From: a virus
Lineage: Duplodnaviria > Caudoviricetes
Reading direction: 5' to 3' (one strand)
Length of the DNA stretch: 64,000 nt
Virus record (IMG/VR): IMGVR_UViG_3300032227_000508
Location: 926-64,925 of that record
The notes beneath the pieces were generated by a model. That model worked only from the letters and a program-made list of their open reading frames with translations, had not been told where the DNA came from and made no database searches. Made by a program: the position numbers and the translations under genes. Positions 34,079-58,410 of the stretch are shown here, piece after piece (position 1 is the first letter of the stretch; each line of letters begins with the position of its first letter).

Positions 34079-34608
34079 ACTTCTAATATCATTAAGTTCT
34101 CTTCGTAAATTACTTTCTTGTCAAGCCCTTCTTTTCTTGGAGGGCGGTACATCCCAATTACTTTTGAAGCTAAAACAAAGTATGCTTCAAACTTATTATC
34201 GGGGGAGCAGATAACAAAAGCAATAAACTCTTTATCAGATGGAGATGTGCATAAAGAATCATTAGGTTGGAATACCCAAGAGTTTTGATAATCCCACACT
34301 TTCATACAACTCTTAACGTGAATTTTTACATCGCCAGACGTAATGTCTGCATCAAATGACTTTAACTCTTTTGGATACACTCCAATATCAGGAAATGTAG
34401 CCAACTTACTCTGATTTATAAGAAAATTCCATACTGCAAACTCCGCCATCTTACCAATGTAAATATCTGATTCGACTTTACTTTTGTTGGTTTGGTTTCT
34501 TTTATCGTACTGGTCCTTGTTAGTGGAATATACTTCCTTGCTAAACAAATCAGCCAATACCTCTTGATAATTATTAGGAGCGATAAGCTTTACTTTCTTT
34601 AGTAGCAT
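34075..34608 (-). CDS. PD-(D/E)xK nuclease-like protein
   Basis: GKMAEFAV...FDADI...IHVKS; start re-assigned to MLLKK; coupled to the methyltransferase. Confidence 0.5.
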   Translation of the reverse strand: MLLKKVKLIAPNNYQEVLADLFSKEVYSTNKDQYDKRNQTNKSKVESDIYIGKMAEFAVWNFLINQSKLATFPDIGVYPKELKSFDADITSGDVKIHVKSCMKVWDYQNSWVFQPNDSLCTSPSDKEFIAFVICSPDNKFEAYFVLASKVIGMYRPPRKEGLDKKVIYEENLMILEV

Positions 34609-34975
34609 AAGATATAATATGAACAATTAGTTTATAATTTTTTTTACCAAGTTCTTCATCTGGGAAAATACATATGCCCTTGCAGAATTTCTTTGAGTCA
34701 TCAATAATGTAATGAGATTTCTTCATCGTATCCTCAAAAATTTTAATCATAGGCACAGTATTGCTTGCGTCTAAGCGACTATTAAAGTATAAGGTAATCA
34801 TATACTTATCAATCTTTTTTATTCCCTTAGGAAGCAACTTTAAGAATAAGTTAGACCAAAATTCTTTTTCTTTATTTCTGAAGGACCAGTGCCGATTAGC
34901 ATACCATTTATTCAAGGACAAGTCTACCCCCTCCCAAACAATAATAAATTGGTCAATCTCTTCATTAAATATCAT
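34574..34975 (-). CDS. RusA-like Holliday junction resolvase
   Basis: SLNKWY...RLDASN...KIFEDTM...IIDDS pattern. Confidence 0.65.
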   Translation of the reverse strand: MIFNEEIDQFIIVWEGVDLSLNKWYANRHWSFRNKEKEFWSNLFLKLLPKGIKKIDKYMITLYFNSRLDASNTVPMIKIFEDTMKKSHYIIDDSKKFCKGICIFPDEELGKKNYKLIVHIISYATKESKAYRS

Positions 34976-37128: not shown

Positions 37129-37160
37129 AAAATTTTATAATACAAAATGTTTAGTTAAAT

Positions 37161-38039: not shown

Positions 38040-38052
38040 CAAATATAATACA
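38040..38052 (-). promoter_or_regulatory. Promoter TGTATTATATTTG
   Basis: Exact TAnnTTTG plus extension identical to the 45988 promoter. Confidence 0.7.
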
Positions 38053-38078
38053 AAATATTTAATTTAAGAACATAAGTT

Positions 38079-40694: not shown

Positions 40695-41328
40695 AATCTA
40701 AAATTTGTCCAACAATATCACTACGATGGTTTTCCTTCAACTTAATCCATTTGATTTCGTCAATCTTCTTAGAGAGATCAATAGCGTAACTAAGCCCATT
40801 ATAGCTATCCTTGATGTCCTTTTGTTCGTTATCTCCGTTAACAATAATCTTACCTGTTTTACCAAGACGTGTTAGAATAGCCAACATCTCAGCCTTTGTT
40901 AGATTTTGTGCCTCTTCTACCACTAAGATATCGTCAATAGTTTTACCTCTAATGAACTGCACAGGATATGCGACAATCTTCTCGTCCTTTACCATTGCTT
41001 GTATCTTAATCTTGTCAGCACACTTAACCAAATTTTCTTGAAATGCTTCTAGGTAAGGGTTAAACTTGTCATCAAGACTTCCCGGAAGGTAACCTAATGA
41101 ATTACCCACCTCAATAGTAGCACGGGTGATAAAGATGTGGTTACATTGTTTCTTGTTTAAGAAGTCTAATGCGGCTAATGCACAGACTAGACTCTTTCCT
41201 GAACCTGCCCTACCTGTGACGATGACAATCTGGTTTTCTATTATTAATTTTCTAGCTTCCTTTTGCTCTTCGTTAAGTACAACAGAATACTTAATTTCAT
41301 TCTTACGCTCTCTATTTGGTTCTTTCAT
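40678..41328 (-). CDS. phoH: PhoH-family ATPase
   Basis: GRAGSGKS Walker A, LGYLPGS, PVQFIRGKT, VEEAQN, ILTRLG, NGDNEQKD motifs. Confidence 0.92.
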   Translation of the reverse strand: MKEPNRERKNEIKYSVVLNEEQKEARKLIIENQIVIVTGRAGSGKSLVCALAALDFLNKKQCNHIFITRATIEVGNSLGYLPGSLDDKFNPYLEAFQENLVKCADKIKIQAMVKDEKIVAYPVQFIRGKTIDDILVVEEAQNLTKAEMLAILTRLGKTGKIIVNGDNEQKDIKDSYNGLSYAIDLSKKIDEIKWIKLKENHRSDIVGQILDFEYNN

Positions 41329-41747: not shown

Positions 41748-42490
41748 TTATGCATTTAAATTAAACTTGTCTGCCTTTGCCTCAAACTCATCTGTGCCAA
41801 TATAAGTGAGATGCATCCTTACCTCTTTCCAATACGTTATGTCTTGGTTTAACTCAATGAGAGTTTCCATTATCTCGTATACGCACATTAATGCACATTG
41901 TTTGCTATGGTAATTATTAGGTTCGTTATTAAAATTAAACCTGTCTAGTAGTTGTAACGCTTTGCTTTCTGGTGTCATTGTTTTTTTGTTTGATTAAATT
42001 ATTTTCAAAGGTAATTCGGTATTTCCGAATAACCACTCTATTTAATTATTCTTCGTCATAGTAATCAAATCTTAATAAAAAATTTGAAATAATGGAATCA
42101 TCTGTTACAGCGTGTTCTCCATTAGAAAAAAACTTTTCGTTATCATAAATAACTAATTTAAATCCTTTCATGAATACGATAAAATCTTTTAAAATAATAC
42201 GAGGATCAGATAGCTTATCATTGGTTTTTCCAGCTTCTAAATGCCCATCATTCCATCCTCTATGATAAGCTTCTCTAATTGAAATTTCCGCTTCAGATAC
42301 TATATCTTCAACGGGATCTGTTATTCTTTTCATCTTATTTATATTGTATTAATATAGCCCACTTAAACCAAGCTAAAGTTAATGTACCACGTTTATATTC
42401 TCCCCAAGCATTATAATAAGTAATAGCTGGAATTAATTCAAATACATACTTTTGTCTTTTAAATTCAATTTTTATTTTTTTTCTTTTCAT
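41748..42490 (-). CDS. Three small hypothetical ORFs (41748-41978, 42046-42333, about 42336-42490)
   Basis: Co-oriented ORFs with A/C-rich leaders. Confidence 0.55.
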
Positions 42491-43260
42491 TTTTGTTTGG
42501 TTTTATAATCAAATAATAGTTGAATAATATGTTGGTATTCTTTACACTCAATTACATTATACTTCTCTTGCTCTTCGTGAATATGTACAAGATAGCATCT
42601 GCCAATCTTTAGATTTGTATTCCTTTCTATAATATACTTATACAGGTTTAATTGAATTGAATACCCCTCAAGCTCGCAGTCATGAAGAAAATTAATTGGA
42701 ATCTTCATTCTCTTTTTGTATTTAGAATACTCGGCTATCTCCTTGTTAGTCTTATAATCCCAAATCTGCAACTCTCCGTGCTTTTGATTCCAAAACAATC
42801 CATCAACCATTCCGCCTACTCCAAGCTCTGCGTCCCCAATTACAAGTTCTAATGCAATAGGTATTAATGCTGAATTAGATTCGTTATAGAAATTATGAAA
42901 CATTCTGATACATTCCTCAAGCCTTTCCTTCATCAAACCCCCGCCAAACTTCTCATCATAAATAGTGTAGTCAAGTGGCAACACTTTATTCTGCCAATAG
43001 TTCTCCGCATAGTTATGTAGAAGAGTTCCTTTAGTTCTAGAAAAGTCTCCCTTAAAGTCCCAATCTGCAAGTATTTCCTCTACGGATACACCTTTCTTCT
43101 TGGCTGACTTAACTGACTGCCCTTCAGAATCAAACTTCTCCTTGAATTGTCCTACGAATCCCGTACCTGATATAAGTTCTTGTTCTCTGATGAAATATTT
43201 ATGCTCAGCATCATGAAACTTAACGACATTAAACTTGGCTAACTCTTTGTATATATTCAT
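42487..43260 (-). CDS. PD-(D/E)xK (Cas4/RecB-like) exonuclease
   Basis: GTLLHNYAE, ELVIGD...GMVDGL...IWDYKT, YSIQLNLY. Confidence 0.8.
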   Translation of the reverse strand: MNIYKELAKFNVVKFHDAEHKYFIREQELISGTGFVGQFKEKFDSEGQSVKSAKKKGVSVEEILADWDFKGDFSRTKGTLLHNYAENYWQNKVLPLDYTIYDEKFGGGLMKERLEECIRMFHNFYNESNSALIPIALELVIGDAELGVGGMVDGLFWNQKHGELQIWDYKTNKEIAEYSKYKKRMKIPINFLHDCELEGYSIQLNLYKYIIERNTNLKIGRCYLVHIHEEQEKYNVIECKEYQHIIQLLFDYKTKQK

Positions 43261-43549: not shown

Positions 43550-44977
43550 TTAAAATGGTGCAATACTTTCATTTGAAAAATCATTTGGTATTGTATTTAA
43601 AACAGATTTTTGGAACAACACCTCAGGTTTAGTAAACTGAAAAAGTTCTTCTTCACTATCAGCAACCCGATTAGTTCGGACATCAACAAATCTGTTTACA
43701 TCTCCCACTTCTCCATCTCTGTTCTTTAAAATAATAAACTTTAACGTGTTATCCATTTGAGCAACAGGCTGATTATTAGATTTAGCATCAACATACTTGT
43801 AGTAATCATCACGATACAATCCAATCACAACAATAGCATCTTGTTCAATGTTACCTGAAGACCTCAAGTCTGCCAACATAGGCTGTCTATTACTTCTTGA
43901 TTCTGCCGACCTATTTAATTGGGCTAAACAAATTATTGGAATACCTAGTTTCCTTGATAATTGTTGTACTTTATTAGAAACCTTTGATACTTGGCTTAAA
44001 TCATCTTGCCCCTTAATCTGATTGTCTGTCATTAATTGTAAGTAATCTATAACAATCATTTCAATCTTATTTTTTCTTACTTCAGCAGTCATCATCATTG
44101 ACAAATAATTAATATCCCTATTGTAAGAATCATAAAAATATATCGGGAGTTTTTTTAGTTCCCTTGCATTAGATTTCTTTATTTTTTGAACATCCTCTTG
44201 GCTAATCCTATTTGCCTTTAGGTCTGAATAGTTATAATCAAAAGCCTCTGATGAGATATATCTATAAATCAACGACTCTTTAGGCATCTCTAATGACAAG
44301 TACAATGCTTTCTTGCCCGACTTGGCACATGATTTAGCAAAATCTAATCCAACAATAGTCTTACCCATCGAAGGTCTTGCCGCAATGATTGACATTCCCT
44401 CTTGCCAACCTCCTAAAGCATAATTTAACTTCCTACTTCCTGTGTCAATCCCACTAAATAATTTATCTGACCCAGCAGATAACTCCATCTTCTCAATTAC
44501 TTCATCATAAATTTGGTCTATTCCATAAACCTCTTTTGAAGCAGAAGAATCAACTACATCTACCAACCTATCTTCTATCATTGATGTCATCGTAGACACC
44601 TCTATGCCATCCTCAATGGATGAAACCAAGTTAAGTGCTAAATCGTATATCTTTCTTTTGTTCTCAATCTCCTTTAATTCAAAGGCGACTTGCATACAAT
44701 CAATCGTACGATTAGGTAGGATGCTTAATAGTTTAGAAGAATTAATTCCTAATTCATTTTCCTTTGATTTAAGGACTCTAAATACATCGAAGCGGGAGAA
44801 TGTACTATTTAACATAGATAATTCAACCATCGTTAAGTATGACACCTTATTTAAAGCATCAGTAAATGTTTCAGATGTAATTATTTTATTCACATCTATT
44901 ACAGAATGTGGATGCTCTAACAGATATGAAATCATATCCCCCTCTAACATCACATCAATTACTTTATTGTTTTTCAT
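43550..44977 (-). CDS. dnaB: Replicative DNA helicase
   Basis: IIAARPSMGKT, LSLEM, IVIDYLQLM, LAQLNR, DLRSSGNIEQDA, KNRDG. Confidence 0.95.
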   Translation of the reverse strand: MKNNKVIDVMLEGDMISYLLEHPHSVIDVNKIITSETFTDALNKVSYLTMVELSMLNSTFSRFDVFRVLKSKENELGINSSKLLSILPNRTIDCMQVAFELKEIENKRKIYDLALNLVSSIEDGIEVSTMTSMIEDRLVDVVDSSASKEVYGIDQIYDEVIEKMELSAGSDKLFSGIDTGSRKLNYALGGWQEGMSIIAARPSMGKTIVGLDFAKSCAKSGKKALYLSLEMPKESLIYRYISSEAFDYNYSDLKANRISQEDVQKIKKSNARELKKLPIYFYDSYNRDINYLSMMMTAEVRKNKIEMIVIDYLQLMTDNQIKGQDDLSQVSKVSNKVQQLSRKLGIPIICLAQLNRSAESRSNRQPMLADLRSSGNIEQDAIVVIGLYRDDYYKYVDAKSNNQPVAQMDNTLKFIILKNRDGEVGDVNRFVDVRTNRVADSEEELFQFTKPEVLFQKSVLNTIPNDFSNESIAPF

Positions 44978-44979
44978 AT

Positions 44980-45687
44980 TTAATATTTATCAGGAATTGC
45001 TATTTCGTAATTTGTGAAACCGGAAGATGCCATTTTTTCTTTTTCTTTATCTTCTAGTGTTATTGGTATTTCATCTTCCCACACCCGATGCATTAAATAT
45101 CTTTCGGGATCTTTTCTAAAGGTGGGATCCGGTCTTAAAGTTTTGTATTTAGGGATTGCTAATAAGACTAAATCTTTTTCAGATTCCTTTAGCTTTATCC
45201 ATTTAGATTTAGCTTTCTCTTTGCCAACCTTTTTCCCATATAACTCCCAAAATTCTTCAAACCTTTCGGTTATAATATTTACTTTATTATTCTCTTTATT
45301 ATTAACTTTATTATTATGGTGATACCCCGCTATCACCCCCCCTGCTACCCCGCTATCACCCCCCTGATACCCCGCTATCACCCCCCCCTCTTCTAAATCA
45401 TCCTTCATTAGCTTTAAATCAGCTAAACGTATCGTTCTGCTACCAATTTCGATATCATTTTTTGAGACATTTTCTCTAGTAATAATCTTCTTACTTTCTA
45501 ACTGCTTAATCAAGGTTCTGACATAAGCATTTGATACTCCCAATGTCTCTGAAATGTATTGATTAGATGCAAAGCAATAACCTGTTTTATTAGACAAACT
45601 AATAAAGACTCCAATCAATAATTTTTCGCTTGAAGACAATTCCTTATTCGATAGTATCTCGCTAGGAACGACTGCGTACCACCTCAT
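44980..45687 (-). CDS. Phage replication initiator (lambda O-like: N-terminal HTH, iteron-encoded linker, C-terminal FEEFW domain)
   Basis: YAVVPSEIL...EKLLIG...GYCFASNQY; linker GGVIAGYQGGDSGVAGGVIAGYH then NNK-rich; FEEFWELYGKKVGKEKA...ERYL; adjacent to dnaB. Confidence 0.85.
   Translation of the reverse strand: MRWYAVVPSEILSNKELSSSEKLLIGVFISLSNKTGYCFASNQYISETLGVSNAYVRTLIKQLESKKIITRENVSKNDIEIGSRTIRLADLKLMKDDLEEGGVIAGYQGGDSGVAGGVIAGYHHNNKVNNKENNKVNIITERFEEFWELYGKKVGKEKAKSKWIKLKESEKDLVLLAIPKYKTLRPDPTFRKDPERYLMHRVWEDEIPITLEDKEKEKMASSGFTNYEIAIPDKY
45318..45388 (-). promoter_or_regulatory. Origin iterons inside initiator gene: 3 x TGATAGCGGGGTA(T/G)CA separated by G6-G7, followed by AT-rich tract
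   Basis: 16-mers at 45320-35, 45343-58, 45365-80; AT-rich DNA follows on the - strand; same layout as the lambda ori within O. Confidence 0.85.
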
Positions 45688-45882
45688 TTATACTTCCTTT
45701 AATTTGGTTTCTAAAAACTTTATTTCTGAAATTAATCCTTCGATTATGGATAATATTTTATCAAAACATTCCATTTCTGGCATTGCATATTGCATCACAA
45801 ACTCATATTCATTAAGTTCTATTTGATAGTTAATCAACTTCAACCTAACTACTGCTAAATGACACTCTAATTCTAAATCCAT
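45688..45882 (-). CDS. Small acidic hypothetical protein, first gene of replication operon
   Basis: 64 aa, abuts initiator start. Confidence 0.6.
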   Translation of the reverse strand: MDLELECHLAVVRLKLINYQIELNEYEFVMQYAMPEMECFDKILSIIEGLISEIKFLETKLKEV

Positions 45883-45887
45883 TGTCG

Positions 45888-45974
45888 AAAAAAAACCCCA
45901 AGACCTTCGAGGGAAAGAATCTTGGGGATAGGACTTTATCCTATTGTTTATTATCTAATCCCTCAATCAGATAA
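45888..45974 (-). ncRNA. Structured leader RNA (three hairpins ending in an intrinsic terminator): attenuator or sRNA candidate
   Basis: Hairpins at 45951-74, 45928-44 and 45896-927 plus U8; lies between promoter 45988 and ATG 45882. Confidence 0.55.
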
Positions 45975-45987
45975 CTAACACAACACG

Positions 45988-46000
45988 CAAATATAATACA
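45988..46000 (-). promoter_or_regulatory. Promoter TGTATTATATTTG
   Basis: Identical 13-mer to the 38040 promoter. Confidence 0.7.
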
Positions 46001-46021
46001 ATTTATTTATTCTTAAACATA

Positions 46022-47507
46022 TTATATTCTTTCACAAGATATTACCCTACTTATGGGAATCCCTATAGTTTTAAATGATTCATTAAAATCTTTAAAAACC
46101 AAAGTTCTAAAATCTTTTGTAGCCAAAACATACGTCCCCTCTATTTCTTCTATCATTTCTCCTAACTCATACACAACCTTAAATCGATATGGTTTCTGAT
46201 ATTTTTTCGCCACCGATAAGATTTTGGTATTGATATTGTGATTTTTTACAGCGTATATATGTTTAATATTTCCGCTTTCTAGTACTACACTCCCAATTAC
46301 TTTTTGATTCTTTTCCATTTTATTTATTTTATTTAATAAGCCTTAAACATACCTACGCATATCTGTCTGAAATTTAATCTGTTCTGAATAGTTTCTTCTT
46401 ATAATTTCTATTCTCTTCAAAATTGCACTTGCAAATTCTTCAAGCTCATCCATTTCTATATCAAAAAAAATAGACTTATCATCATCAAATTGAGAATGTA
46501 AATCTCCATGAAAAATAGTATCATTCCCCATTGACTCATTCTGAAGCTTATATAATACCAAATCATGGGTCTCTCCATATATCTTAATTCTAGATACATT
46601 CTTAATGTCCTCCAATGTCATATTATCGCTGATATGAAGATTTTTTATTGGCAATTTCATTTCCATTTTAGTTTTAATTTAAATTTTAGTTAAAAATAAA
46701 TCATAAGGGTAGTCAGTTCCGTGCCACCCATACAATTTTCCTGTTAAATCCCAAGCATACGACTCGTAAGCCCCTCTAATTTCAATCCATCCGACAATCT
46801 GATGCCCATCTTTTGCTTTTACATTAATTCCCCCGATGATTATGTCGAATTCTTTTCTTGTAATTACTTTGTAATTACTTGTTTGCATTAACCCCCAATT
46901 AAAATCTACCATCCTCTTTCTGATTTAGATAGGATTAGCCTTCCGTGTGACGTATACTTCGCATTACTATCCATATTATTAATATAGATGTCTTCGCTCG
47001 TTATTATCCCAAACTCTTCTTTAATCAAAGAAACATCGACTTTTTCTTCATGCTTATATACTTTGTTTACATAAATAATTATTCCACAAGACAACAAAAT
47101 ACAAATAGCAATTGCCTCAACAATATGTTTTTTACTTTTCATTTTTATTTTGATTTGGTTTAACATACAACAATAATAAAATACGCAACTGCGACAAAAA
47201 TTAAACATAAAACAAACTCCAGTACTTCCCCTGTAGTTATTTGCTTCTTACTCATTTACTTTAAAGAGATTTCTAATTTGACTGACTGCTCTGTGCCATC
47301 TTCGGCATCTTCTACTACAACTGATAATGTCCCCTCGTAAGAGAATTGTATATCGTATGTTCGCCCACCTAATTCAAATGTGTACCAAACATTCCCAAAA
47401 TCGTACGGAGACCAATTGATTTCCGTACGTTCTTCTACCTTATTAACTTTTGCCGATATCTTGGCAACCATTGTAAATGGATTTACATCAACTATAATTC
47501 TCATCAT
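46022..47507 (-). CDS. Five hypothetical ORFs (46022-46318, 46343-46666, 46679-46912, 46906-47142 with TM/Cys N-terminus, 47256-47507)
   Basis: Co-oriented ORFs; no recognisable catalytic motif. Confidence 0.6.
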
Positions 47508-47509
47508 TT

Positions 47510-47935
47510 TTAAATTAAATCTGCTTCAAAAAATATATTCTTGGACTCGTCCCGCATAACAATGTAATTGCTTATCAAATTATTTAATAACAAATCTTCT
47601 GCTATCGCATCGGCAAAGTTATTAGGCAACCTAAAGTGCTTACAACCTTTCTTTATTATCCAAATCTTTGGATTATGTAGGTCTACATCGTTATAGTATA
47701 CGTTTACCCAATTAGGTAAACATATATTCTCGTTTGCTAGATTGTACCAATAGAAATATCCATCTTGGCTTAAATCAAAAACGAACCCGCCCGATAAGAA
47801 TTGCTTTATAGAAAAGCATCTATCTTCTAAAAACTCTTCAAAGCTTGGCTTATCATTCTGCCGAATGTATTCGGACTTATATTTATCTTGTTGCTCAAAT
47901 GATAACAACTCGAAATAATCTTTTCTTGTAGGCAT
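47510..47935 (-). CDS. Hypothetical protein sharing a domain with 47966-48376
   Basis: FELLS..QQ.KY....FEEFL....SI..FLSGGFVF..SQDGY.YW. Confidence 0.65.
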   Translation of the reverse strand: MPTRKDYFELLSFEQQDKYKSEYIRQNDKPSFEEFLEDRCFSIKQFLSGGFVFDLSQDGYFYWYNLANENICLPNWVNVYYNDVDLHNPKIWIIKKGCKHFRLPNNFADAIAEDLLLNNLISNYIVMRDESKNIFFEADLI

Positions 47936-47965
47936 AATATTGCTTGGTTAAAATGTAATTGAATT

Positions 47966-48376
47966 TTATTTGTTCCTGAGATCAGTCTCCAGCTCAAGCC
48001 AAAAGGATAAACCTTCTTTAGATGTAATGTAAACAAACCCGCTTCGAAGAAATGAATCTATTGAATCCCATTCTTTATCAAGGTAGTCTTCAAACACCCA
48101 ATTACTCATCCTCTTCTCGCTATTCCAATTTGCTTTAAACTTCTTTCTTTGGCTAATAGTTAATAACTCAAACCAATAATGCCCATTCTTGTCGCCACTC
48201 TGACTCTTATTTCTTTTTGGTAAATCGATATCATTTACGATATCAATTAATTTTGTGATTAACCTCTCATCATTTGAATATGCAAGGTCTGACAAAAACA
48301 AATTCATCTCGTTCAATGGCTTATCTTGACCAAAGTGAGAAATTAATGCACTAACTACATCTGTACGATTTTTCAT
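47966..48376 (-). CDS. Hypothetical protein sharing a domain with 47510-47935
   Basis: FELLT..QR.KF....FEDYL....SI..FLRSGFVY..SKEG..FW; start re-assigned to MKNRTD. Confidence 0.65.
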   Translation of the reverse strand: MKNRTDVVSALISHFGQDKPLNEMNLFLSDLAYSNDERLITKLIDIVNDIDLPKRNKSQSGDKNGHYWFELLTISQRKKFKANWNSEKRMSNWVFEDYLDKEWDSIDSFLRSGFVYITSKEGLSFWLELETDLRNK

Positions 48377-48395
48377 TTTATTTTTATTTAAATTG

Positions 48396-49043
48396 TTACA
48401 ATACTGCACCCCATTGACTTGCCATCGCATCTGCCATGCCTTGAAATGTTTTACTTCTCATTCCTCTACGTTCTTCGGGTGACTTCGCCTTCTGCAATGC
48501 CTCGTAATACCACATCGCTTGCCGTTTAGGTTTACCCGACTTCCCATCAATCCACTCCTTGAACTCCCCCTTCTCAACCATATTTGTAGGCACTAACTTT
48601 GGTAAATTAGTTAACCACAAACAAGTAGTCTTACTCGCTGAATCTCCAAACCAATAGGGCTGAACGATTTGGTCGGGCTTCCGCAACTTCGATGATATGA
48701 CTGATACAAGATTCTCAATTGCAATTCGAGGGATGTTTGCCATCATCAGTTTGTAGACAAATACTAATGCTTGCCTCTGATTCTCGTACCTTTCTTCGTT
48801 TGGTGTGCCATCCTTATTATATAGATGCCTTGCACCGCTTACTGATAGGTAGGTACATGGTGGATGTGCAATCATTAAATCCCAACCCTTGTCAATTACT
48901 TCGAACACATCTTGCTCATAGTGGAAATCGGGATGACCCCCACTACATGGCAATATGTCACAACTGAACGCTTCGAAACCTAATTTGCGAAACGCTAATG
49001 TTACTGCTTGACTCTCTTCGCAAGCTACTAATACTCTCTTCAT
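48396..49043 (-). CDS. Second compact DNA cytosine methyltransferase-like protein
   Basis: VLVACEES (degenerate motif I), IAHPPCTYLS (motif IV), IAIENL (motif VI), RSKTFQGMADAMASQW C-terminus. Confidence 0.75.
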   Translation of the reverse strand: MKRVLVACEESQAVTLAFRKLGFEAFSCDILPCSGGHPDFHYEQDVFEVIDKGWDLMIAHPPCTYLSVSGARHLYNKDGTPNEERYENQRQALVFVYKLMMANIPRIAIENLVSVISSKLRKPDQIVQPYWFGDSASKTTCLWLTNLPKLVPTNMVEKGEFKEWIDGKSGKPKRQAMWYYEALQKAKSPEERRGMRSKTFQGMADAMASQWGAVL

Positions 49044-49108
49044 AACTTTTTTAGTTTAATCTAAAAATCTAATTGAATTTAACCAGTGGATCAGGGCTGG
49101 CACCAGTG

Positions 49109-50400
49109 TTAAATGATTCGAATTATAAACATATCTGTACATATTTCTACACCATTAAATGCTTCTTCAAAACCCGCTAAAGACCACACATTGCCTTGCT
49201 CTTCAGCTATTTCAATAAACTCCCAATTAGAAATTTCTTTCCAACCTATAATCTCAACTGCATCCTTGAACTCTTCTTTAAGTTCATCTTGGTTAATTCC
49301 GTATACTCTAATTTCTTTTTCCATAATTGATTTTATTTAAAGTTTGACGTAACAAAATGACACCCATCTATCATCAACATGAAAATCCTCATCATTGATG
49401 CTTTCGCAGAAATCTGAAATCGGCATACAAGACAATTTGTGCATGACACATAAATCAGATAACTCGTTAGGAGTATACCTCTCGTTCTCCATATTTTCAA
49501 CTGACCTTCTTTCAGTTTTGCTGACATCAGCAATAATCATCATTAGCTTATCCATAATTATATTTCGTTTGAATCGGTTATTTAGATTATAAACTTGGTA
49601 AAATTCCGCAGTAATGCTCTTCACGATAGTAATCTATTACTCCCATGTCATTCCCCTCATCATCAGATAAGATAGTTAATATGATTCCATCGCTCAACTC
49701 CATTACAATGCCTCGCTTGTGCCAACCATTATTATCTGCAACTTCTTTAGAGATGTACTCAACTTTAATGATAGTCTTGCCTTGCAAAACCTCAACGGCT
49801 TTTTTTTGCCAAAATACTTCTGATGTCATTAGTCTTCGTTTTGAGATTGGTCTTTGAAATAGTATGCTACATTAATTACCTGCTGAATTAATTCTCCTTC
49901 GCTTAAACGAACCAAATCATTCGCATCGTACTCATCGCCCAACAAGTCTTCGAGGGCATTAATTAATTGCTTTCTCATAATTGTTATTATTTAAATTGTG
50001 TAACTCCTATAAACTTGATTGATACATTATCGTACTCCACATCCGCACCAACTATATCACATACATCTTCCCATGTGTGCGACCTCTCGAAATCATCTGC
50101 ATATAAGGATAGAACTCCTTTGACTGAATCGAAACTTTCCTCATCAGATTCGGGCATAAAATCTTCGAACATCTCATAATTCTCATCATAGATTTCGACT
50201 TTCTCCAAAACATCTAATTGATTCCATTCCTCACGCAATGCGTCTAAATACTTTTGGAACTTCTCTTCGGACATTGTTGTCGCTTCATGTACGACATCTT
50301 CAAAGTGAATGCGACTTAACGCTACAAATGGCATACATCCGTACCATTCGTTCAACTGCACATCGATGGCAGTCAATTGGTCTTTAATTGAGTTTTTCAT
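49109..50400 (-). CDS. Small acidic early ORFs (49109-49324, 49337-49624, 49587-49829, 49829-49978, 49987-50400)
   Basis: Co-oriented, acidic, downstream of promoter-like site at 50433. Confidence 0.6.
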
Positions 50401-50432
50401 TGTGTTAATTGATTTGTTTGATTAATAATGAT

Positions 50433-50445
50433 GCAATATAATACA
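50433..50445 (-). promoter_or_regulatory. Promoter variant TGTATTATATTGC
   Basis: Near match to the 38040/45988 promoters. Confidence 0.5.
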
Positions 50446-50538
50446 TATGATATAGTAATGTCAAGTGTTTTCCCATATTTATTTTTCTCCTGTGGGATTA
50501 CCTGTGTGATCAGTAAACACTTGTAATTCATTTACTTA

Positions 50539-50895
50539 CATTTTTAGATTAGCCTAAAAAAGTAATTGAATTGGATCGTATTCTCTCCTGCAGGAACCAC
50601 AGCTGGAACCGGATCCCCTAAAGCTGACCTATTTATTTATATTTTTAGACGCACCTAAAAAAGTAATTGAACGGTAGTAGATTTGCTCCAGCAACCAGCA
50701 CTTGCTCCAGCTTTAGACGGAATTCAATTAGATTAGATTTTGCCTAACGGATAGTTAATGATGATAGTGGAATTTGAGTAAAAGTAATTTTGCCTAACGG
50801 ATAGTTAATGATGATAGTGGTTTTGGGAAAAAATTGATTTACATTTTTTAGGCTGACCTAAATTTAATTTTAGTCTAGCCTAAAAAAGTAATTGA
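50539..50895. repeat. Non-coding repeat block: 3 x CCTAAAAAAGTAATTGA within TTTTAG-N6-CTAAA(A) dyads
   Basis: 17-mer at 50553, 50654, 50879; 44-bp imperfect palindrome at about 50845-50887; related dyad at about 49047-49078. Confidence 0.85.
50737..50820. repeat. 34-bp perfect direct repeat, 50-bp period
   Basis: ATTTTGCCTAACGGATAGTTAATGATGATAGTGG at 50737-70 and 50787-820. Confidence 0.95.
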
Positions 50896-50960
50896 GTGCT
50901 ACCTGTTCTCCAGCAGAAATTTAAATATCAAAAAAATTGAATTAGATTTTTATATGGGGC

Positions 50961-50993
50961 AAAAAAAAATCCCTCACATTTCTATGAGGGATT
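50961..50993 (-). terminator. Intrinsic terminator after amidotransferase gene
   Basis: AATCCCTCA-8nt-TGAGGGATT stem followed by T9 on the - strand. Confidence 0.85.
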
Positions 50994-51013
50994 GTATTAG
51001 AACGTAGGATTAA

Positions 51014-51829
51014 TTAAATGCAGTACCATTTGAGATTCTCCATCTCTTCCCATTCGGCAATGGATAACGATGCAACATCTCTCTTCTTTAACTCATTGAA
51101 TCTATCTTGATACACATCAAATTCTTCATACACATCATCCACTATTGGCGGATAAACGATTTGCTTTTGCTTGGGCATATCCCATGAGGATTCAGAATTC
51201 CATCTATATTTAGGCTTTGGATTATGCTTGGCATTATGGTAAACTTTTGTGCCACCATAATCAACATAATCAATCTTTTTGTATGTGCTATTACTAAACC
51301 AACATCCATCGAATTCATCATCTCTCTTGCCTAATGATTCATTGATAATAGTGTATTCATTATAGGCATTCAAGAAAACTAATTTACTACTGCCAATAAA
51401 CTTCTGAATCAATTTAAGAATAGCATCATTGTAAATGAAATCACTTGGTAGTTTACGCAGATACGTTTCATTGAATAGATTCGTATCTGATTTCTTTGCA
51501 TCAATACCATTCAATTCTGAAATGATTCCGTTATGAACGAAAGCTAAATCCCCACCAACCCGGAATGGATGACAATTGGTTTCATTAACTCCACCACTTG
51601 TACTAATGCGGAAATGTAGAACGACATTACTTTGCGGATTCTCTTTACGAATCTCAATGTACTTGTTGTAGAAATTCTGAAACGATTGAATCTCTTTGTG
51701 AATATATAACTGATTCGTTTTGACATCAGTCCAAATCATTCCGCCACCATCTTTGTTGTTGTTCCAACAATTGCGGATTAACTCTTGAGTAAAAGTAACA
51801 TTAGGGGAATTTAAAATTGCGATACACAT
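51014..51829 (-). CDS. Class II (Ntn) glutamine amidotransferase
   Basis: N-terminal MC, NxDGxG, HFRIST.G, NCHPF, HNGII, SDT motifs. Confidence 0.9.
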   Translation of the reverse strand: MCIAILNSPNVTFTQELIRNCWNNNKDGGGMIWTDVKTNQLYIHKEIQSFQNFYNKYIEIRKENPQSNVVLHFRISTSGGVNETNCHPFRVGGDLAFVHNGIISELNGIDAKKSDTNLFNETYLRKLPSDFIYNDAILKLIQKFIGSSKLVFLNAYNEYTIINESLGKRDDEFDGCWFSNSTYKKIDYVDYGGTKVYHNAKHNPKPKYRWNSESSWDMPKQKQIVYPPIVDDVYEEFDVYQDRFNELKKRDVASLSIAEWEEMENLKWYCI

Positions 51830-51933
51830 AATGATTGTTGTTTAAATTGTGTTTGAAAAATTGTAATTGAATTTATTAATTGCTGATAGTGGAATTTGCT
51901 ATAGGGGAGAATGTTTCATCTCCCCATATGCAA

Positions 51934-53661
51934 TCACATATTATTTACTGCATTTCTAATTGTGGAGAAATCGAATGAAATGAAATCCCTATCGAATCTC
52001 TTCGCCATGTCTATAGAATCTAATATCCTTTGCTTGATTTTGCTTGGGCTAAACTCTTTAGTCATATGCTTATACAAATCTGATTCCTTATCAGTTAGCA
52101 TATTGCATACTTCATTGAATCTATTTGTAGGATTGTTAGCCATGATTCGTAGTAAACCAATACGCCAATTCAATTGGTCGATATTTTTTACTAAAGGAAA
52201 GATTCGGAATTCAATTCTTTGTGAAACAATATCCTCGATGATTCTTACTGCTTGGAATTTTTCCGTAGTGTTATGTTTCATCTCTTGTTTTTCTTTTGCT
52301 TTGCAATAATATTTGTCGTGTCGATTACGATAGATTGCATAGAATAATGGCATATAACCGCTTATCATTTCAAAGGTATCCTTTGCAGATGTATAACTTC
52401 TGCTGAAATGTATATGACCTCCACAAGATGCATTTGATTTGTCATAAGAAATCAAATCATGGTCATTCCCATTGATAAGATTTGGAAATGCTATCTCAAT
52501 TTCTTTTGCCTCATTGATAAGGTCATCTTCAAATAAAGGATAACATGGTGAAACCAATTCGTAACCAATTACATCACATAAACTGCCATCCCTCTCTTTC
52601 TTCCATCCAAATCTTTGACCTATAGATACATTCGAATGCTTACTCCCAAGATAACTTTGTTTCTCAATTTCAACTCCAATTTTGAATACATATCTCTGCT
52701 CGAATTGTAATTCCTTTACGCTGAATTCACGATGATAAGTATATCGTGGATTCCTATGGTTTCTTCTTGCACAAGCATTTGCATCATGTTGTGCATCCAA
52801 TCTGCTATTACATATTGGACATCTTGCATCAACATAACCATTTACGATGGCAGAATTCTCATCAAAATACGGAATGCCATCATGATTTATTGGACTAAAA
52901 CGAAAATCATAGTCATAGCCATTCGCCAATGTAAATGTGTACAATTGATTTCTATCTAATCTTATTGCAGATGTATGAGAAATAAAAATTCTCTCATTAA
53001 TGCCGTCTTCATTAACTACATAATATTCTCGACAATCATTCCTTAAAACTTTATTGTTAGTTATGTAACAAGTAACAACATCTTGATGGTCATGTGTAAC
53101 ATATAAGGTAAATCGTTTTGTAGGACATTGTTCCATCGATACAGAATTCCTTGTTTTAATTAAACTTGAAATCATAGATTCATAAATGGTAGAATATCTT
53201 CTAACCACATAATCCATTTTATCGTTCGCTTTGTGAATTAAAACTAAATCTCCCCAAAGGTTTTTGTCAGTTACTTTCAAATCAATCCATCTATGCTCAT
53301 CCAATGAATAAACATAACCCGAATTGAATCTATGCTCATCTGACATAAAGTACAATGTCTTATTGCCATACATGATGGATATCGTTTTGCCCAATGATAT
53401 GTTAGCGATGTATGTGTTTCCCTCATTGTTTGGATTCCTATGATATCGAACACAATCAGATTTTAAGAAACATGCTCTTGACCATGTTTGTGATTGTTCA
53501 TGGAAGAAATATGCTTTGGTAATCTTCTCGAATTCTGTTGAATTCCTATCGTTGAATGCAGTAAAATTAAAACGATTCCTCGATGATGGGTATGAATCAT
53601 GTAATGTGGCTGAATCATGTACATTAATTGATTCTCCAAAAATTGTTGTTACGATTGACAT
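51934..53661 (-). CDS. Putative amidoligase (glutamine-synthetase-like COOH-NH2 ligase) with long unknown N-terminal region
   Basis: KIGVEIE, ERDGSL, GYELVSP, SCGGHIHFS, RIEFRIF; CPIC Zn-finger before the ligase domain. Confidence 0.8.
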   Translation of the reverse strand: MSIVTTIFGESINVHDSATLHDSYPSSRNRFNFTAFNDRNSTEFEKITKAYFFHEQSQTWSRACFLKSDCVRYHRNPNNEGNTYIANISLGKTISIMYGNKTLYFMSDEHRFNSGYVYSLDEHRWIDLKVTDKNLWGDLVLIHKANDKMDYVVRRYSTIYESMISSLIKTRNSVSMEQCPTKRFTLYVTHDHQDVVTCYITNNKVLRNDCREYYVVNEDGINERIFISHTSAIRLDRNQLYTFTLANGYDYDFRFSPINHDGIPYFDENSAIVNGYVDARCPICNSRLDAQHDANACARRNHRNPRYTYHREFSVKELQFEQRYVFKIGVEIEKQSYLGSKHSNVSIGQRFGWKKERDGSLCDVIGYELVSPCYPLFEDDLINEAKEIEIAFPNLINGNDHDLISYDKSNASCGGHIHFSRSYTSAKDTFEMISGYMPLFYAIYRNRHDKYYCKAKEKQEMKHNTTEKFQAVRIIEDIVSQRIEFRIFPLVKNIDQLNWRIGLLRIMANNPTNRFNEVCNMLTDKESDLYKHMTKEFSPSKIKQRILDSIDMAKRFDRDFISFDFSTIRNAVNNM

Positions 53662-53700
53662 AATTGTGATTGTTTTGATTGTTAAAAATTAGATTGATTA

Positions 53701-53862
53701 TCAGTTTTCTTTTTGACCTATAAAAATTGTAAGAATGCTAATGCCGACATATGCGACAATGCAGAAAATTGCTTCAGCAAAACCACTATGTTTTGCACAA
53801 AAAATGGACATGGGAATTAATCCTTGAATAACTACCATCGGTAAAATAAATTGCTTTTTCAT
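53701..53862 (-). CDS. 53-aa two-TM membrane protein (not in ORF track)
   Basis: MKKQFILPMVVIQGLIPMSIFCAKHSGFAEAIFCIVAYVGISILTIFIGQKEN. Confidence 0.6.
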   Translation of the reverse strand: MKKQFILPMVVIQGLIPMSIFCAKHSGFAEAIFCIVAYVGISILTIFIGQKEN

Positions 53863-53882
53863 TTTGTGTTTGTTTTGATTGT

Positions 53883-54152
53883 TTAAAATTGTTGTGATTG
53901 ATTGTCGATGTATTCCATTACATCATTCGCTTCGATGTATGCATCCTTATCAGCTAATGAATCGAATCTTCTACCATCGAATTCAATTACATCCGCCATG
54001 TATTTACGAATGTAATAATCCATTAAACCTTGAACGGATTCGAAATCGAATCTGTATTGAGTACATTGTGTTTTGAATCCAATGCAATTTTCTCTTCGCC
54101 AATCCATGAATTGGATGTATTCTTGATTGGTCATTGTTACTTGATTTTTCAT
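53883..54152 (-). CDS. Hypothetical early protein
   Basis: Start likely MKNQVT (54152), because a promoter-like GTATTATCTTTA at 54279-90 would place the TSS inside the longer ORF. Confidence 0.55.
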   Translation of the reverse strand: MKNQVTMTNQEYIQFMDWRRENCIGFKTQCTQYRFDFESVQGLMDYYIRKYMADVIEFDGRRFDSLADKDAYIEANDVMEYIDNQSQQF

Positions 54153-54878
54153 TGTAATTGGGGTTAAATTGTTAAAAATATGCGTTTCCAGAGAAACCAT
54201 GCATGACGGATTAGCATCTAAACCATTGAAAATCAATGTGTTATGTGTTTTGATATGTCGTGCTGATTTGCTCATATGTAAAGATAATACTAATGTTTTA
54301 AAATCCTATACATATAGTAAGGAAAATTTTATAGGTCAATGAATGTAAATGAATGGATTTTGTTAGTGCAGATTTTTGCCCCAAAATAATTTGTAATAAA
54401 ATGGAAATGTAATTGAATCGAAATGTAATTGGATAGGTAAGATTTTGTTTTAGTGTTTATGTTCGAGCGGATTGTTCGTTCTTCTTATCTGTATGTTGTG
54501 GCAAAAGTAATTGAGATAAGGAATTCGATTTGACATAATTCCAGTGCATATGTTATAACATATTTTATGTGGAAAAAGTGGTCTGATACATCAGAAATTA
54601 GGTTTTTGAAATGCAAAAAAAATGATCACTCGGTCAAATTTTCTGATTTCGCAAATTTTTTCTGCCGGATCCCAATAATATATATAACCCTAAGAATCCA
54701 AGCCCACAGTATAAAAAAATACTATTAGAAAATAAACGCTGATACAAAGCTGACACATCAACGACACTATGCTTTGCTTGACATCTGCTAACACATAATT
54801 CATTCTATAACAATATCTCTTACTTCGCATAAAATAATGCCTTACAAGCAAGCGTTATGAAAAATCAATATGATTCTA

Positions 54879-54886
54879 TAACTTTG
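54879..54886 (+). promoter_or_regulatory. -7 element TAACTTTG, start of head/packaging operon
   Basis: Exact TAnnTTTG, then AACCAAACA leader and ATG 54912. Confidence 0.65.
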
Positions 54887-54911
54887 GATTTACAAACCAA
54901 ACAGACAAATT

Positions 54912-55568
54912 ATGTTACAATACGAGCTTTCTCAAGCATCTCCTAATTCTTTGATTGTAGAAATTGGTGCACAATACGATGACACAGTTCAGTATGGCTC
55001 ATTATCTATCTTCATAGACCCATTATTTAAACCCACACACAATGCAAGAATATACGGACTGGTTAAAGCTATCCCAAAAGGCAAGTGCTATAATGAAGAC
55101 GGGATTGAAATTGAAGCCGATGTACAAGTTGGCGATAAAGTATACTTTCATTACTTGGCAACATTTGATGAGAACGCTTGTCTTTATGGCAACTACTATA
55201 GAATACCTTATTGTTGGATTTTTTGTGTGGTCAGGGGTACTGATATTATACCTATTGGCGGTTGGACATTTTGTGAGAAAACGGTTGAAGGGGAGGAAGA
55301 ATTTTCTGAGGTAGAAGTCAATGGTGTGAAGATATCTGCTGTCACAAATTCTTCTGGATTAGTAACATCTATTGGAAAAAATGAATCTACCAAAGTTGCA
55401 ATTATGCGACACATTGGAAAACCGTTAAAAAATGTAAATCCTATTGATGTAAATTCGGGGGAAAAAGTTTTGATTGAAAAGTCACTTAACTTTGAAAACA
55501 CTATTGAGGGCAAATCTTACTATACGATACGTCAAGGGGATATATTGGGTAAATATAAAACATTTTAG
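54912..55568 (+). CDS. Tandem GroES/Cpn10-like co-chaperonin
   Basis: Two modules: GLVKAIPKG...DVQVGDKVYF and PIGGWTFCE...VNSGEKVLI...IEGKSYYTIRQGDILG. Confidence 0.7.
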   Translation: MLQYELSQASPNSLIVEIGAQYDDTVQYGSLSIFIDPLFKPTHNARIYGLVKAIPKGKCYNEDGIEIEADVQVGDKVYFHYLATFDENACLYGNYYRIPYCWIFCVVRGTDIIPIGGWTFCEKTVEGEEEFSEVEVNGVKISAVTNSSGLVTSIGKNESTKVAIMRHIGKPLKNVNPIDVNSGEKVLIEKSLNFENTIEGKSYYTIRQGDILGKYKTF

Positions 55569-55694
55569 GGTGATGCTATAGTAGCAGGGGGTGATAGCGG
55601 GGTATCACCCATACAATTGTTTGGGTGATAGCGGGGTAGCAGGGGGGGTGATAGCGGGGTAGCAGGGGGGTGATAGCGGGGTATCACCATAATA
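55568..55694 (+). promoter_or_regulatory. Second iteron array: 4 perfect plus 1 degenerate TGATAGCGGGGTA(T/G)CA, followed by about 110 bp AT-rich DNA
   Basis: 16-mers at 55592, 55626, 55649, 55671 (degenerate 55571); inverted relative to the array at 45318-45388. Confidence 0.9.
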
Positions 55695-55841
55695 TTAAAT
55701 ATAATATAAGAATTAATACTAAAAAATATATTGCAAATTATTTTCAATTTATTTTCAAATAATTATTAATCTTCCTAAAAGAAGAAAAAAAAAGAAAAAA
55801 GGCTTTCCGCCCCAGCCCGCCAAAATAAAATATAATAGACT

Positions 55842-56399
55842 ATGGCATTATTTACTGAAGAAGATTTTAAGGTTTTAACAATAGACCCTTTTGCAAAAAA
55901 CTTTGCTAAACAAAAAATTGTTGAGCAGTTATTTGGTAAGCTTAATCCATCTGAGGACGCAGTTATTAAGTATGTGATTTTGTTATATGATAGCAAGTCT
56001 CCACTTAGATTAAAGATTCCTTTACTATCTGATAGAAAGAAAGAATGTGCTGAGTTAGCAGGGTTATCTATTAAAGACAATATCTTTGATTTAAGCCACC
56101 CAAAAATAGTGGGATATGTAAATACTTATCTTAGGTATCAGCAGTCCAAAGTGTGGTCAATATTGGCTGCTAACGAAGAAGTATTGTGGCAATATCAATC
56201 TGAATTACTAACTCCGATAACGCAGTTCAAAACTGATAAGGATAAGTTGCAAGCTTTGGAGATTAAATCAAAGTTAATGGCGGAGTGTGATGCTATTATA
56301 AAACGAATTGAGTCTTACGAAGAAAAGTTATTTGGGGATAACTCTGATAAAAAAGATAAAATATTAAGTATGACACCAGAGGCAATATCTAATTTATAA
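55842..56399 (+). CDS. Putative terminase small subunit or packaging-associated protein
   Basis: 185 aa, helical, immediately upstream of terL; positional inference only. Confidence 0.45.
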   Translation: MALFTEEDFKVLTIDPFAKNFAKQKIVEQLFGKLNPSEDAVIKYVILLYDSKSPLRLKIPLLSDRKKECAELAGLSIKDNIFDLSHPKIVGYVNTYLRYQQSKVWSILAANEEVLWQYQSELLTPITQFKTDKDKLQALEIKSKLMAECDAIIKRIESYEEKLFGDNSDKKDKILSMTPEAISNL

Positions 56400-56400
56400 T

Positions 56401-58410
56401 ATGTATAGAGTTCATAAAAATTCAAAACAACTTGATATTCATGGGATTACGGTTAATCTTCCGCCTACTGGGTGGGTATATAATGTTATTACAAGTGAAT
56501 GGGAAAAAAGGGATCCGGTTAAACGGTCTATGCGAAAAGAAAATCAGTACTGGGAGAGACCTCTACCACCTGATGACTATGAAGCAAAAAGAAAGAGGGA
56601 AATATTGTCTCAAAAAACAAACGCTGACTACCAAAGTAGTGAGCTTCAAAACTATCGTAATCAAGAATGGGACAGGAGGCTAAATGGATTTTGGTTTTAT
56701 AATAATGGGAATGCAACTTATATTACAGGGCTTCATTACTTTTACTTAGTGCATTGGAAGATAGATGTAGGTTATCCCGACTTTCGTATTACAGACAAAG
56801 AGTTTTTTTACTTTTTGGAATATGTATGTCAAGACCCACGCAGTCTAGGAATGATTGAAGTTACAAAACGTAGGCAGGGTAAGACAATGAGGGCGGGTGC
56901 TTTTTTGTTTGAGCTTACCTCAAGGAGCAAGAATAAGAATGCAGGTATTCAATCTAAGACATTTGAGGATGCTAAAGAAAACGTATTTGCTAAGGGTGTC
57001 GTAATGCCATTTAAGTATTTACCCGATTTCTTTATTCCAATTTACGATACTGAAAAAGGAATGACCCCTAAAGGAGAATTACGTTTTTTCAAAACTAATA
57101 AGAGGGGTGCGTCTGATTTTGATTTTGATAAAAAAATAGAACTTGAGTCAAGCATTACTTTTAAGTCAGCAGATAAATTCTCATATGATGGAACAAAACT
57201 ACATAGATACCTTGCGGATGAAGCGGGTAAAACAAAGAATGTTGACGTATATGACCGCCATCAAGTGGTTCAATTCTGTTTACAACAAGAAGAAAATATT
57301 ATTGGTAAGGCTTTATATACTACTACTGTTGAGGAGATGGAAGATGGGGGAGCATCTTTTAAACAACTTTGGATGGCATCAGACCAATCCAAAAGAGATA
57401 AGAATGGAAGAACAATGTCGGGGCTGTACCAATACTTTATGCCCGCATACAAAACGTTGTTCTATGACAAATATGGATTTGCTGACGAAGAAAAAGCAAA
57501 AGATTATTACATAAATGCAAGGGAGGCATTATCTTCTGATAACAGAGCCTTAGCGTCTTATATTCGTAAGAACCCATTTACAATTGAGGAAGCATTCTTT
57601 AGTGAAGGAGAGACTTGTTTGTATGATGCAATGGCAATCAATAGGCAGATTGAAACAATATCGTGGATTGATAAAAAAGAATTATATTTGCAAGGAGAAT
57701 TTATATGGGAAGATGGAGTTCGTGATAGCAAGGTTATTTTTAAAGAAAGTTCTACTGGTAAGTTTCTTGTAATAAAAGAAGTAAACCCACAAGACGTTGA
57801 TTCTTATAACCAAGTTGAGGAGTATGGTACAAAGAAAATACCAAAGGCTAAGACTAAGTATGCAATTGGAGTCGATCCATTTGACCATTCGATAACTACA
57901 AGTAATGAGCGTTCTGATGGAGCAGCCTATGTTTATAGAAGATTTGATGCAACAGATGAGCTAAGTGAGACATTCTTAGTAGAGTATTTGAATCGCCCCG
58001 ATAAGGCAGAAATATTCTACGAGGATATGATTAAGTTGTGTCATTTCTTTGGGTGCGAGATATTGTCTGAGGACCAGAAGATTGGTTTAATTAAGTACTT
58101 TGAATACAGGGGATATGAGAAATTTTTAGTTAAAATGCCCAATTCGGCTAAGTATGGAATATCTGCTAGTACAAAGGTGCACCAACAGATAGCTGAAGAA
58201 ACAGAAAGTTATATAATGGATAATTTGCATAAAGTCAAATTTCCTAAACTTTTAAATGACTGGTTGCACTTTGATATAAATAAAACAACTAAATTTGATG
58301 CGGCAATGGCAAGTGGTTACACATTAATTGCATCGAGTAAATCAAAGTTTACTCAGAAGATTGAACAACAACAAAAACTATATGAAATACGAGATGTATT
58401 TCCGTTTTAA
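56401..58410 (+). CDS. terL: Terminase large subunit (crAss-like)
   Basis: KRRQGKT ATPase motif, YLADEAGK Walker B, IGVDPFD nuclease motif, KFDAAMASG. Confidence 0.92.
   Translation: MYRVHKNSKQLDIHGITVNLPPTGWVYNVITSEWEKRDPVKRSMRKENQYWERPLPPDDYEAKRKREILSQKTNADYQSSELQNYRNQEWDRRLNGFWFYNNGNATYITGLHYFYLVHWKIDVGYPDFRITDKEFFYFLEYVCQDPRSLGMIEVTKRRQGKTMRAGAFLFELTSRSKNKNAGIQSKTFEDAKENVFAKGVVMPFKYLPDFFIPIYDTEKGMTPKGELRFFKTNKRGASDFDFDKKIELESSITFKSADKFSYDGTKLHRYLADEAGKTKNVDVYDRHQVVQFCLQQEENIIGKALYTTTVEEMEDGGASFKQLWMASDQSKRDKNGRTMSGLYQYFMPAYKTLFYDKYGFADEEKAKDYYINAREALSSDNRALASYIRKNPFTIEEAFFSEGETCLYDAMAINRQIETISWIDKKELYLQGEFIWEDGVRDSKVIFKESSTGKFLVIKEVNPQDVDSYNQVEEYGTKKIPKAKTKYAIGVDPFDHSITTSNERSDGAAYVYRRFDATDELSETFLVEYLNRPDKAEIFYEDMIKLCHFFGCEILSEDQKIGLIKYFEYRGYEKFLVKMPNSAKYGISASTKVHQQIAEETESYIMDNLHKVKFPKLLNDWLHFDINKTTKFDAAMASGYTLIASSKSKFTQKIEQQQKLYEIRDVFPF

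Follow-up and report, generated by a model that had tools for sequence, protein, structure and literature searches.

A second, inverted copy of an origin-type module ahead of the packaging genes of an uncultivated freshwater phage

Bacillus phage SPP1 carries two sites for one replication initiator: oriL lies inside the initiator gene, gene 38, and oriR occupies the longest non-coding gap of the late region (PMC6316719, PMC3485210). Each site combines direct repeats with an AT-rich unwinding element, the two are 12–13 kb apart on the circle, and gp38 (G38P) binds both with nanomolar affinity (PMC6316719, PMC3485210). The role of oriR is still a proposal in these papers: gp38 bound there is suggested to act as a fork barrier for the switch from theta replication to concatemer (sigma) synthesis, and stalled forks are processed by exonuclease gp34.1, recombinase gp35, the single-stranded DNA-binding protein gp36, and resolvase gp44 (PMC6316719, PMC3485210). 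Here we describe a further case of this dual-origin layout in an uncultivated freshwater phage. The window we analyzed is the 64-kb stretch at bases 926–64925 of the 64,925-bp IMG/VR record IMGVR_UViG_3300032227_000508, which has direct terminal repeats and an estimated completeness of 100%. A first-pass annotation of this window had noted repeats inside the initiator gene (array 1) and a second, inverted set in front of the packaging genes (array 2), and knew of no description of the arrangement in phages; SPP1 oriL and oriR have the same layout (PMC6316719, PMC3485210).

Two copies of an origin-type module

Array 1 lies in a gene whose product had been called the initiator, an identity borne out by its family matches (Table 1). 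The protein has an N-terminal winged helix-turn-helix (HTH) domain, a Gly-rich and Asn/Lys-rich linker, and a conserved C-terminal domain. The origin-type DNA encodes the linker, and array 1 falls between the two domains. Exact copies of the 16-mer TGATAGCGGGGTAKCA occupy 45320–45335, 45343–45358, and 45365–45380 on the − strand, with G7 and G6 as spacers and G8 in front. The unit consensus is TGATAGCGGGGTA(T/G)CA, and the three copies, at 45320–45380, encode the Gly-rich linker stretch GGVIAGYQGGDSGVAGGVIAGY. The adjoining AT-rich tract, a putative DNA unwinding element (DUE1), is also inside the initiator coding sequence.

Array 2 holds four exact copies of the same 16-mer on the + strand (55592–55607, 55626–55641, 55649–55664, and 55671–55686). 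A fifth unit, TGATGCTATAGTAGCA at 55571–55586, had been described as a degenerate copy; it is instead a unit of the CTATAG-center type that is dominant in sister genomes. The spacers run G5, an 18-bp spacer, G7, and G6. The 18-bp spacer, CCCATACAATTGTTTGGG, was rightly recognized as palindromic, with the qualification that the palindrome is imperfect (16/18) around a perfect core, ACAATTGT. The TGATA-N6-TATCA dyad ascribed to the repeat unit is found in the T-variant units only and not in the others.

In place of G-run spacers, the left-hand part of array 2 has a short motif (ACAATTGT / ACATTTGT) at 55556–55570 and 55609–55624. Counterparts occur in L034 (7170–7235), in L035 and L036 (about 10645–10700), and in G001, where a perfect TAnnTTTG-type form, TACATTTG, is present. 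The motif is confined to the left-hand units of array 2 and never occurs in array 1. It could be a site for a second factor or a Bacteroidota-type −7 box.

When the window was searched for the 16-mer with up to three mismatches, 8 matches were found against 0.44 expected, and none of 100 shuffles reached 8. The sole further match, at 49358 with three mismatches, is probably due to chance. Both arrays close with CACCATAATA and then run into AT-rich DNA. They share an exact match of 30 bp and a match of about 53 bp with one G indel, and as inverted-repeat arms they align over 45 nt at 96% or over 68 nt at 81%, the longer arms extending into the AT tract. The distance between them is 10.2 kb. This search and a self-comparison of the window agree with the array positions, junction, match lengths, and spacing of the first-pass annotation, and its description of array 2 as a second, inverted copy of the origin module, comprising repeats, junction, and AT-rich unwinding tract, stands. 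In each module the repeats come first and the AT tract second relative to local transcription; thus, the two AT tracts face outward from the 10.2-kb early segment. A decayed copy of the initiator gene was considered as the source of array 2 and rejected, since the likeness covers the repeats and AT tract only (about residues 103–144, with stops) and neither protein domain.

We computed nearest-neighbor duplex stability along the window in 60-bp and 100-bp windows. The tract beside array 2 (DUE2) provided the least stable duplex at both scales, at 55689–55748 (60 bp, AT 0.92) and 55689–55788 (100 bp, AT 0.89). DUE1, at 45264–45323, ranked ninth among non-overlapping 60-bp windows and fell within the top 0.16% of all windows. 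Among 11 loci of relatives, each about 10–20 kb long, the flank of array 2 was the least stable DNA of the locus in 6 and among the top two in 8, and it was less stable than the in-gene flank in every one. The composition of the in-gene flank is limited because it is coding.

Conservation and co-variation among relatives

Relatives were retrieved from viral contigs with the initiator, the GroES-like protein, a 575-aa early protein, and an initiator alignment as queries. Unique contigs with enough flank to be informative numbered 17, with initiators 36–69% identical (tblastn); G003 and ten further loci with a short upstream flank were not counted. All relatives have a repeat array at the same position within the initiator gene, and all 17 informative genomes keep a second array, inverted relative to the first, between the GroES-like gene and its neighbor in the small-terminase position (TerS-like). 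The architecture stands in 17 separate IMG/VR records, and the initiator reading frames are intact across them.

In an automated screen, repeats found inside each initiator gene were sought elsewhere in the same locus. Loci whose initiator was at least 36% identical and whose upstream flank reached about 9–10 kb or more all returned a second array, with one exception, a genome whose second array had been seen by eye. The site was the GroES-like/TerS-like gap in 13 of 13 loci checked. In other genome types, about a dozen HTH_36-type initiators of lower identity (39% or less, most of them partial matches) had no second copy within 10 kb on either side. In-gene tandem repeats were present in distant initiators L063–L067, L070, L071, L079, L083, L100, and L101. 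The dual layout is therefore specific to this clade and not general to HTH_36 initiators.

The six closest complete or near-complete genomes (initiators 58–66% identical, tblastn) have both arrays. They keep the outer half-sites TG(A/C)T...A(T/G)CA around a central 8 bp that is either of the CTATAG-center type or GC-rich, and pairing each array with its partner from the same genome gave the best score of all 720 permutations. In the sister genomes, array 1 alternates CTATAG-center and GC-rich-center units in an A-B-A order, whereas array 1 of the present phage is homogenized to the GC-rich type. Two box types have been described in the SPP1 origins, which these two unit types recall.

Across the clade there are at least six unrelated repeat sequences, each common to both arrays of one genome; examples are ACCATACCCCTATGGTAAAA, ACCCCTCTGGTG..ACACCAT, and GGAAAATCCAACATT. 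Co-variation of the arrays with the initiator, which the first pass had proposed to check, is thus seen as six matched repeat classes, together with the permutation result above. The putative recognition-helix region of the HTH differs in a genome of a different repeat class. The junction CA(C/T)ATAATA and the AT tract are alike at both arrays over five of the six classes, and the GGAAAATCCAACATT class has a junction of its own, common to its two arrays. Such a pattern would be expected of repeats that determine initiator specificity next to a junction and AT tract used by common machinery, for example in helicase entry. A G-quadruplex was rejected as the conserved role of the G6–7 spacers, since five of the six classes lack G-runs.

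Two observations bear on the assembly. In the probable source run, the Logan contigs end at each of the two arrays, which an exact repeat of 30 bp would be expected to cause at k = 31. Among the Logan contigs of 20 public runs, no joint points to an inversion or a deletion. Judged by sequence comparison, array 2 is conserved and under selection, and chance, misassembly, and neutral persistence are excluded for practical purposes.

The present genome has a GC content of about 34%, and the metagenome runs with phage sequence mostly have freshwater or lake labels. Among cultured phages, its terminase is closest to those of Flavobacterium and Cellulophaga podoviruses (about 32% identity), from which we deduce Flavobacteriia as the probable host group. 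In searches of cultured-phage records, megablast with an 11.6-kb region matched nothing, and tblastn with the initiator gave distant matches only (22–47% identity; Lactobacillus, Vibrio, and a few other phages, including one Enterococcus record). By both searches, a close cultured relative is absent from that collection.

Table 1. Coordinates of the two modules and of the genes and blocks around them (window numbering)
Feature	Position	Strand	Basis or remarks
RusA-like Holliday-junction resolvase	34574..34975	−	phrog_4632 4.2e-10
PD-(D/E)XK exonuclease	42487..43260	−	Pfam PDDEXK_1 1.9e-7; phrog_298 1.9e-22
DnaB-type replicative helicase gene	43550..44977	−	Pfam DnaB_C 3e-66; phrog_19 1.7e-66
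Replication initiator gene	44980..45687	−	235 aa; Pfam HTH_36 5.7e-13, residues 16–69; phrog_270 'replication initiation protein' 1.9e-27
Junction CACCATAATA and AT-rich tract (DUE1)	45260..45319	−	encodes HHNNKVNNKENNKVN
Array 1: three 16-bp units, G6–8 spacers, period 22–23 bp	45320..45388	−	in initiator linker
GroES-like gene, left neighbor of array 2	54912..55568	+	Pfam Cpn10 1.1e-9; phrog_13932, phrog_3188
Array 2: five units, one CTATAG center, four GCGGGG center	55571..55686	+	non-coding; between GroES-like and TerS-like genes
Junction CCATAATA and AT-rich tract (DUE2)	55687..55790	+
Polypurine run and C-rich block, just before TerS-like start	55775..55822	+	clade-wide alignment
185-aa gene in small-terminase position (TerS-like)	55842..56399	+	no family match; kept beside array 2 in relatives
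Large terminase gene	56401..58410	+	phrog_6681 'terminase large subunit' 4e-89

Possible roles of the second module

We consider it likely that array 2 and its flank form an initiator-bound second origin module of the SPP1 type, acting in replication. Such a module would consist of the initiator-binding repeats, the CA(C/T)ATAATA junction, and the AT-rich unwinding element, with its first copy in the initiator linker. The winged-HTH initiator, probably as a dimer reading the outer TGMT...AKCA half-sites, would bind both arrays, and array 2 would act as a second (late) origin heading the packaging operon. A second firing origin is the most likely role because the best unwinding element of the genome adjoins array 2. 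Alternatively or additionally, initiator bound at array 2 may block forks in the SPP1 manner and so bring about the change from circle to concatemer replication, with stalled forks processed by the phage exonuclease and the RusA-like resolvase. The sequences themselves show the architecture, its conservation, the co-variation, and the duplex instability; initiator binding, origin firing, and fork arrest are inferred.

Several points weigh against an origin module acting in replication. The GC skew of the window flips at about 34 kb and about 54 kb exactly with the coding strand and shows no extra shift at the arrays or the predicted termini. The initiator and SPP1 gp38 give a BLASTP E value of 1.1, which is not significant. 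A promoter could account for the AT-richness of a gap that heads an operon, and the co-variation in the closest group could result from gene conversion between the inverted arrays instead of selection on binding. For SPP1 itself, theta replication in vitro has been reported from oriL only, and oriR is mainly a proposed barrier (PMC6316719, PMC3485210).

The possibility that array 2 is purely a barrier and never fires is the strongest rival, one that we regard as plausible but not probable. Tightly bound initiator would stall a fork coming from the in-gene origin, and reversal, cutting by the RusA-like resolvase, and resection by the exonuclease would lead to recombination-dependent concatemers. 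This is the published model for SPP1 oriR, which corresponds to the roadblock among the options listed in the first pass, and it is the sole model with an experimental pedigree (PMC3485210, PMC6316719). It fits the presence of exonuclease and resolvase genes, and the units of array 2 are at least as many as those of array 1 in every genome examined. A barrier, however, requires binding sites alone, yet the junction and the most meltable AT tract are kept beside array 2 throughout the clade. Because a barrier needs neither, a second origin that fires is somewhat more likely. No single-strand annealing recombinase was recognized among the genes scanned, which also tells against a pure barrier, and no separate helicase loader was recognized either.

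Also conceivable, if unlikely, is a split origin, in which the outward-facing modules bracket the early region and each fork leaves its repeats co-directionally with the transcription arm that it faces. If this were true, array 2 would start concatemer (sigma) synthesis, and replication, late transcription, and packaging would run the same way from one point. Sites of the oriR type would then gain a defined positive role, where the SPP1 papers cited here offer a barrier model only.

Transcriptional control is an improbable explanation of array 2. Here, bound initiator would gate read-through or initiation of the terminase–portal operon and so tie late expression to initiator level. Array 2 does head the + strand packaging operon, and in the closest genomes the motif ACAWTTGT / TACATTTG, near the Bacteroidota −7 box TAnnTTTG, stands among its left units. 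The strict Bacteroidota pattern TTTG-N17-23-TAnnTTTG, however, gave 3 matches in the window against 5 expected, none of them near array 2, and sigma-70-like matches were below the shuffle mean. Furthermore, the junction and AT tract copy the origin and not a promoter, and we know of no O-type or gp38-type initiator that regulates late genes.

A titration or handcuffing locus like P1 incA, which would sequester initiator or pair with array 1 and so limit initiation, seems quite unlikely to us. Arrays of identical sites 7–10 kb apart with one initiator would suit handcuffing, and iteron plasmids (P1 incC/incA, R6K, F) use a two-array geometry for it. A search of the complete 64.9-kb genome for two families, integrase (PF00589) and ParB (PF02195), found neither, so there is no sign of a plasmid or prophage state in need of copy control. 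Array 2 also bears the strongest unwinding element, whereas control arrays normally have none. That element and the absence of these two plasmid or lysogeny genes together favor an origin or SPP1-type role over incA-like titration, which the first pass had listed as an option.

It is very unlikely that array 2 is a pac site bound by the small terminase and only incidentally like the in-gene array. Binding of small terminases to repeats close to the genes that encode them is common, and array 2 is immediately upstream of the gene in that position. The same units, however, lie in the initiator linker, where O-type and gp38-type origins characteristically sit; the arrays co-vary through six repeat classes; a second pac inside an early gene would be harmful; and the conserved polypurine/C-rich block, nearer the TerS-like gene, is a better candidate. 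An artefact, or a neutral duplication remnant kept alike by gene conversion, is hardly tenable despite the contig breaks at both arrays, because the 17 separate records share the architecture with intact initiator frames and neutral DNA would not have stayed at a single syntenic site while initiators diverged to 36% identity and the repeats turned over six times in step.

Surrounding features and relation to known systems

Around array 2, the GroES-like gene is the left neighbor in all relatives, with 52–95% identity. Of its 218-aa product, only residues 145–215 match Cpn10, and no family covers the first 140 residues. The polypurine run, CCTAAAAGAAGAAAAAAAAAGAAAAAAGG, leads into the C-rich block, CCGCCCCAGCCCGCC, at the same place in L032–L036 and L046–L061. 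On the − strand, this region reads as a hairpin and T-run, a terminator-like match at 55813–55799; no − strand gene lies to its right. The block is a candidate pac site or a candidate shield against antisense transcription into the AT tract. A probable portal gene follows the large terminase gene, with a weak P22_portal match that is under the Pfam cut-off.

On the early side, the helicase gene comes directly after the initiator gene, with a stop/start overlap. A 22-nt repeat at 37116–37137, 38040–38061, and 45988–46009 lies upstream of − strand operons, and its reverse complement has TTTG...TATATTTG. It is likely an early promoter of the Bacteroidota type, and the copy at 45988 precedes the initiator operon. 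The early arm also has a 600-bp non-coding block (50400–51014) with a 63-nt repeat in three copies (50530, 50631, 50856) and a 50-nt tandem pair (50719–50818); an arm at 49042–49078 is inverted relative to 50530–50566. Two DNA methyltransferase genes on the − strand, at 33407–34078 and 48396–49043, both match phrog_757 (2.8e-32 and 6.4e-61), and a PhoH-like gene is at 40678–41328. In a large + strand gene, twenty in-register copies with a 93-bp period (31 aa) form two blocks at 5039–7879, probably a fiber or shaft repeat.

Several known systems share part of this architecture. In lambda, dyad-symmetric repeats about two helical turns apart and an AT-rich tract lie inside gene O, in the linker that joins the DNA-binding domain of the initiator to its helicase-recruiting domain. 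The present phage likewise has phased dyad repeats and an AT tract within its initiator gene, whose product carries its DNA-binding domain at the N terminus and weakly matches the 'replication initiation O-like' PHROGs 678, 391, and 345. Lambda, however, has a single origin and no copy near the packaging genes, whereas here a second full module occupies 55571–55790.

Separated arrays for one initiator are known from P4 and P1. In P4, the repeats that the initiator binds form two clusters, ori and crr, which are separated by several kb and have the initiator gene between them or next to them. P4 alpha is a primase-helicase and not a winged-HTH protein, crr is a cis-acting enhancer and does not duplicate a full origin with its unwinding element, and neither cluster lies in an initiator linker. 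P1 oriR (incC) and incA are two arrays of RepA-type sites for one initiator in a low-copy plasmid with partition genes. The incA array exerts negative control and lacks an unwinding element, unlike array 2, which is flanked by the strongest one in the genome.

The closest likeness is to SPP1. In the SPP1 record, repeats and an AT tract at about 35950–36030 (gene 38) recur at about 4880–4965, between genes 7 and 8, in the same polarity and with a longer AT tract at the intergenic copy. Both phages have one origin copy in the low-complexity linker of the initiator and the other in a non-coding gap among packaging or head genes, about 10–13 kb apart on the circular map. In both, the repeats precede the AT-rich unwinding tract, with the same polarity relative to transcription, the longer AT tract is intergenic, and a DnaB-type helicase gene lies downstream. 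Functional counterparts of G34.1P and G44P, an exonuclease and a Holliday-junction resolvase, are encoded. The two initiators also share matches to phrog_428, phrog_186, and phrog_345, which for the present protein are weaker than its phrog_270 match and are accompanied by other initiator, O-like, and DnaD-like families.

The two phages differ in several respects. The copies are inverted here and direct in SPP1, because the early and late arms diverge in the present phage. Array 2 lies before the TerS-like gene, whereas the SPP1 copy follows the portal and gp7 genes. There is no counterpart of the helicase-loader gene (gp39) between initiator and helicase, and the repeat units are dyad-symmetric. 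The present phage probably infects Flavobacteriia and has a terminase of the Flavobacterium/Cellulophaga podovirus type.

The two-copy layout is thus now seen in a clade whose probable host group and virion type are different from those of SPP1. The comparison is evidence that selection maintains the second copy and that this copy amounts to more than binding sites, because it is kept in 17 of 17 genomes, its repeats have changed in step with those of the first at least six times, and the better unwinding element is always at the second copy. The comparative result adds weight to oriR-type sites being functional and widespread, and the clade supplies natural specificity variants in the form of matched initiator–repeat pairs.

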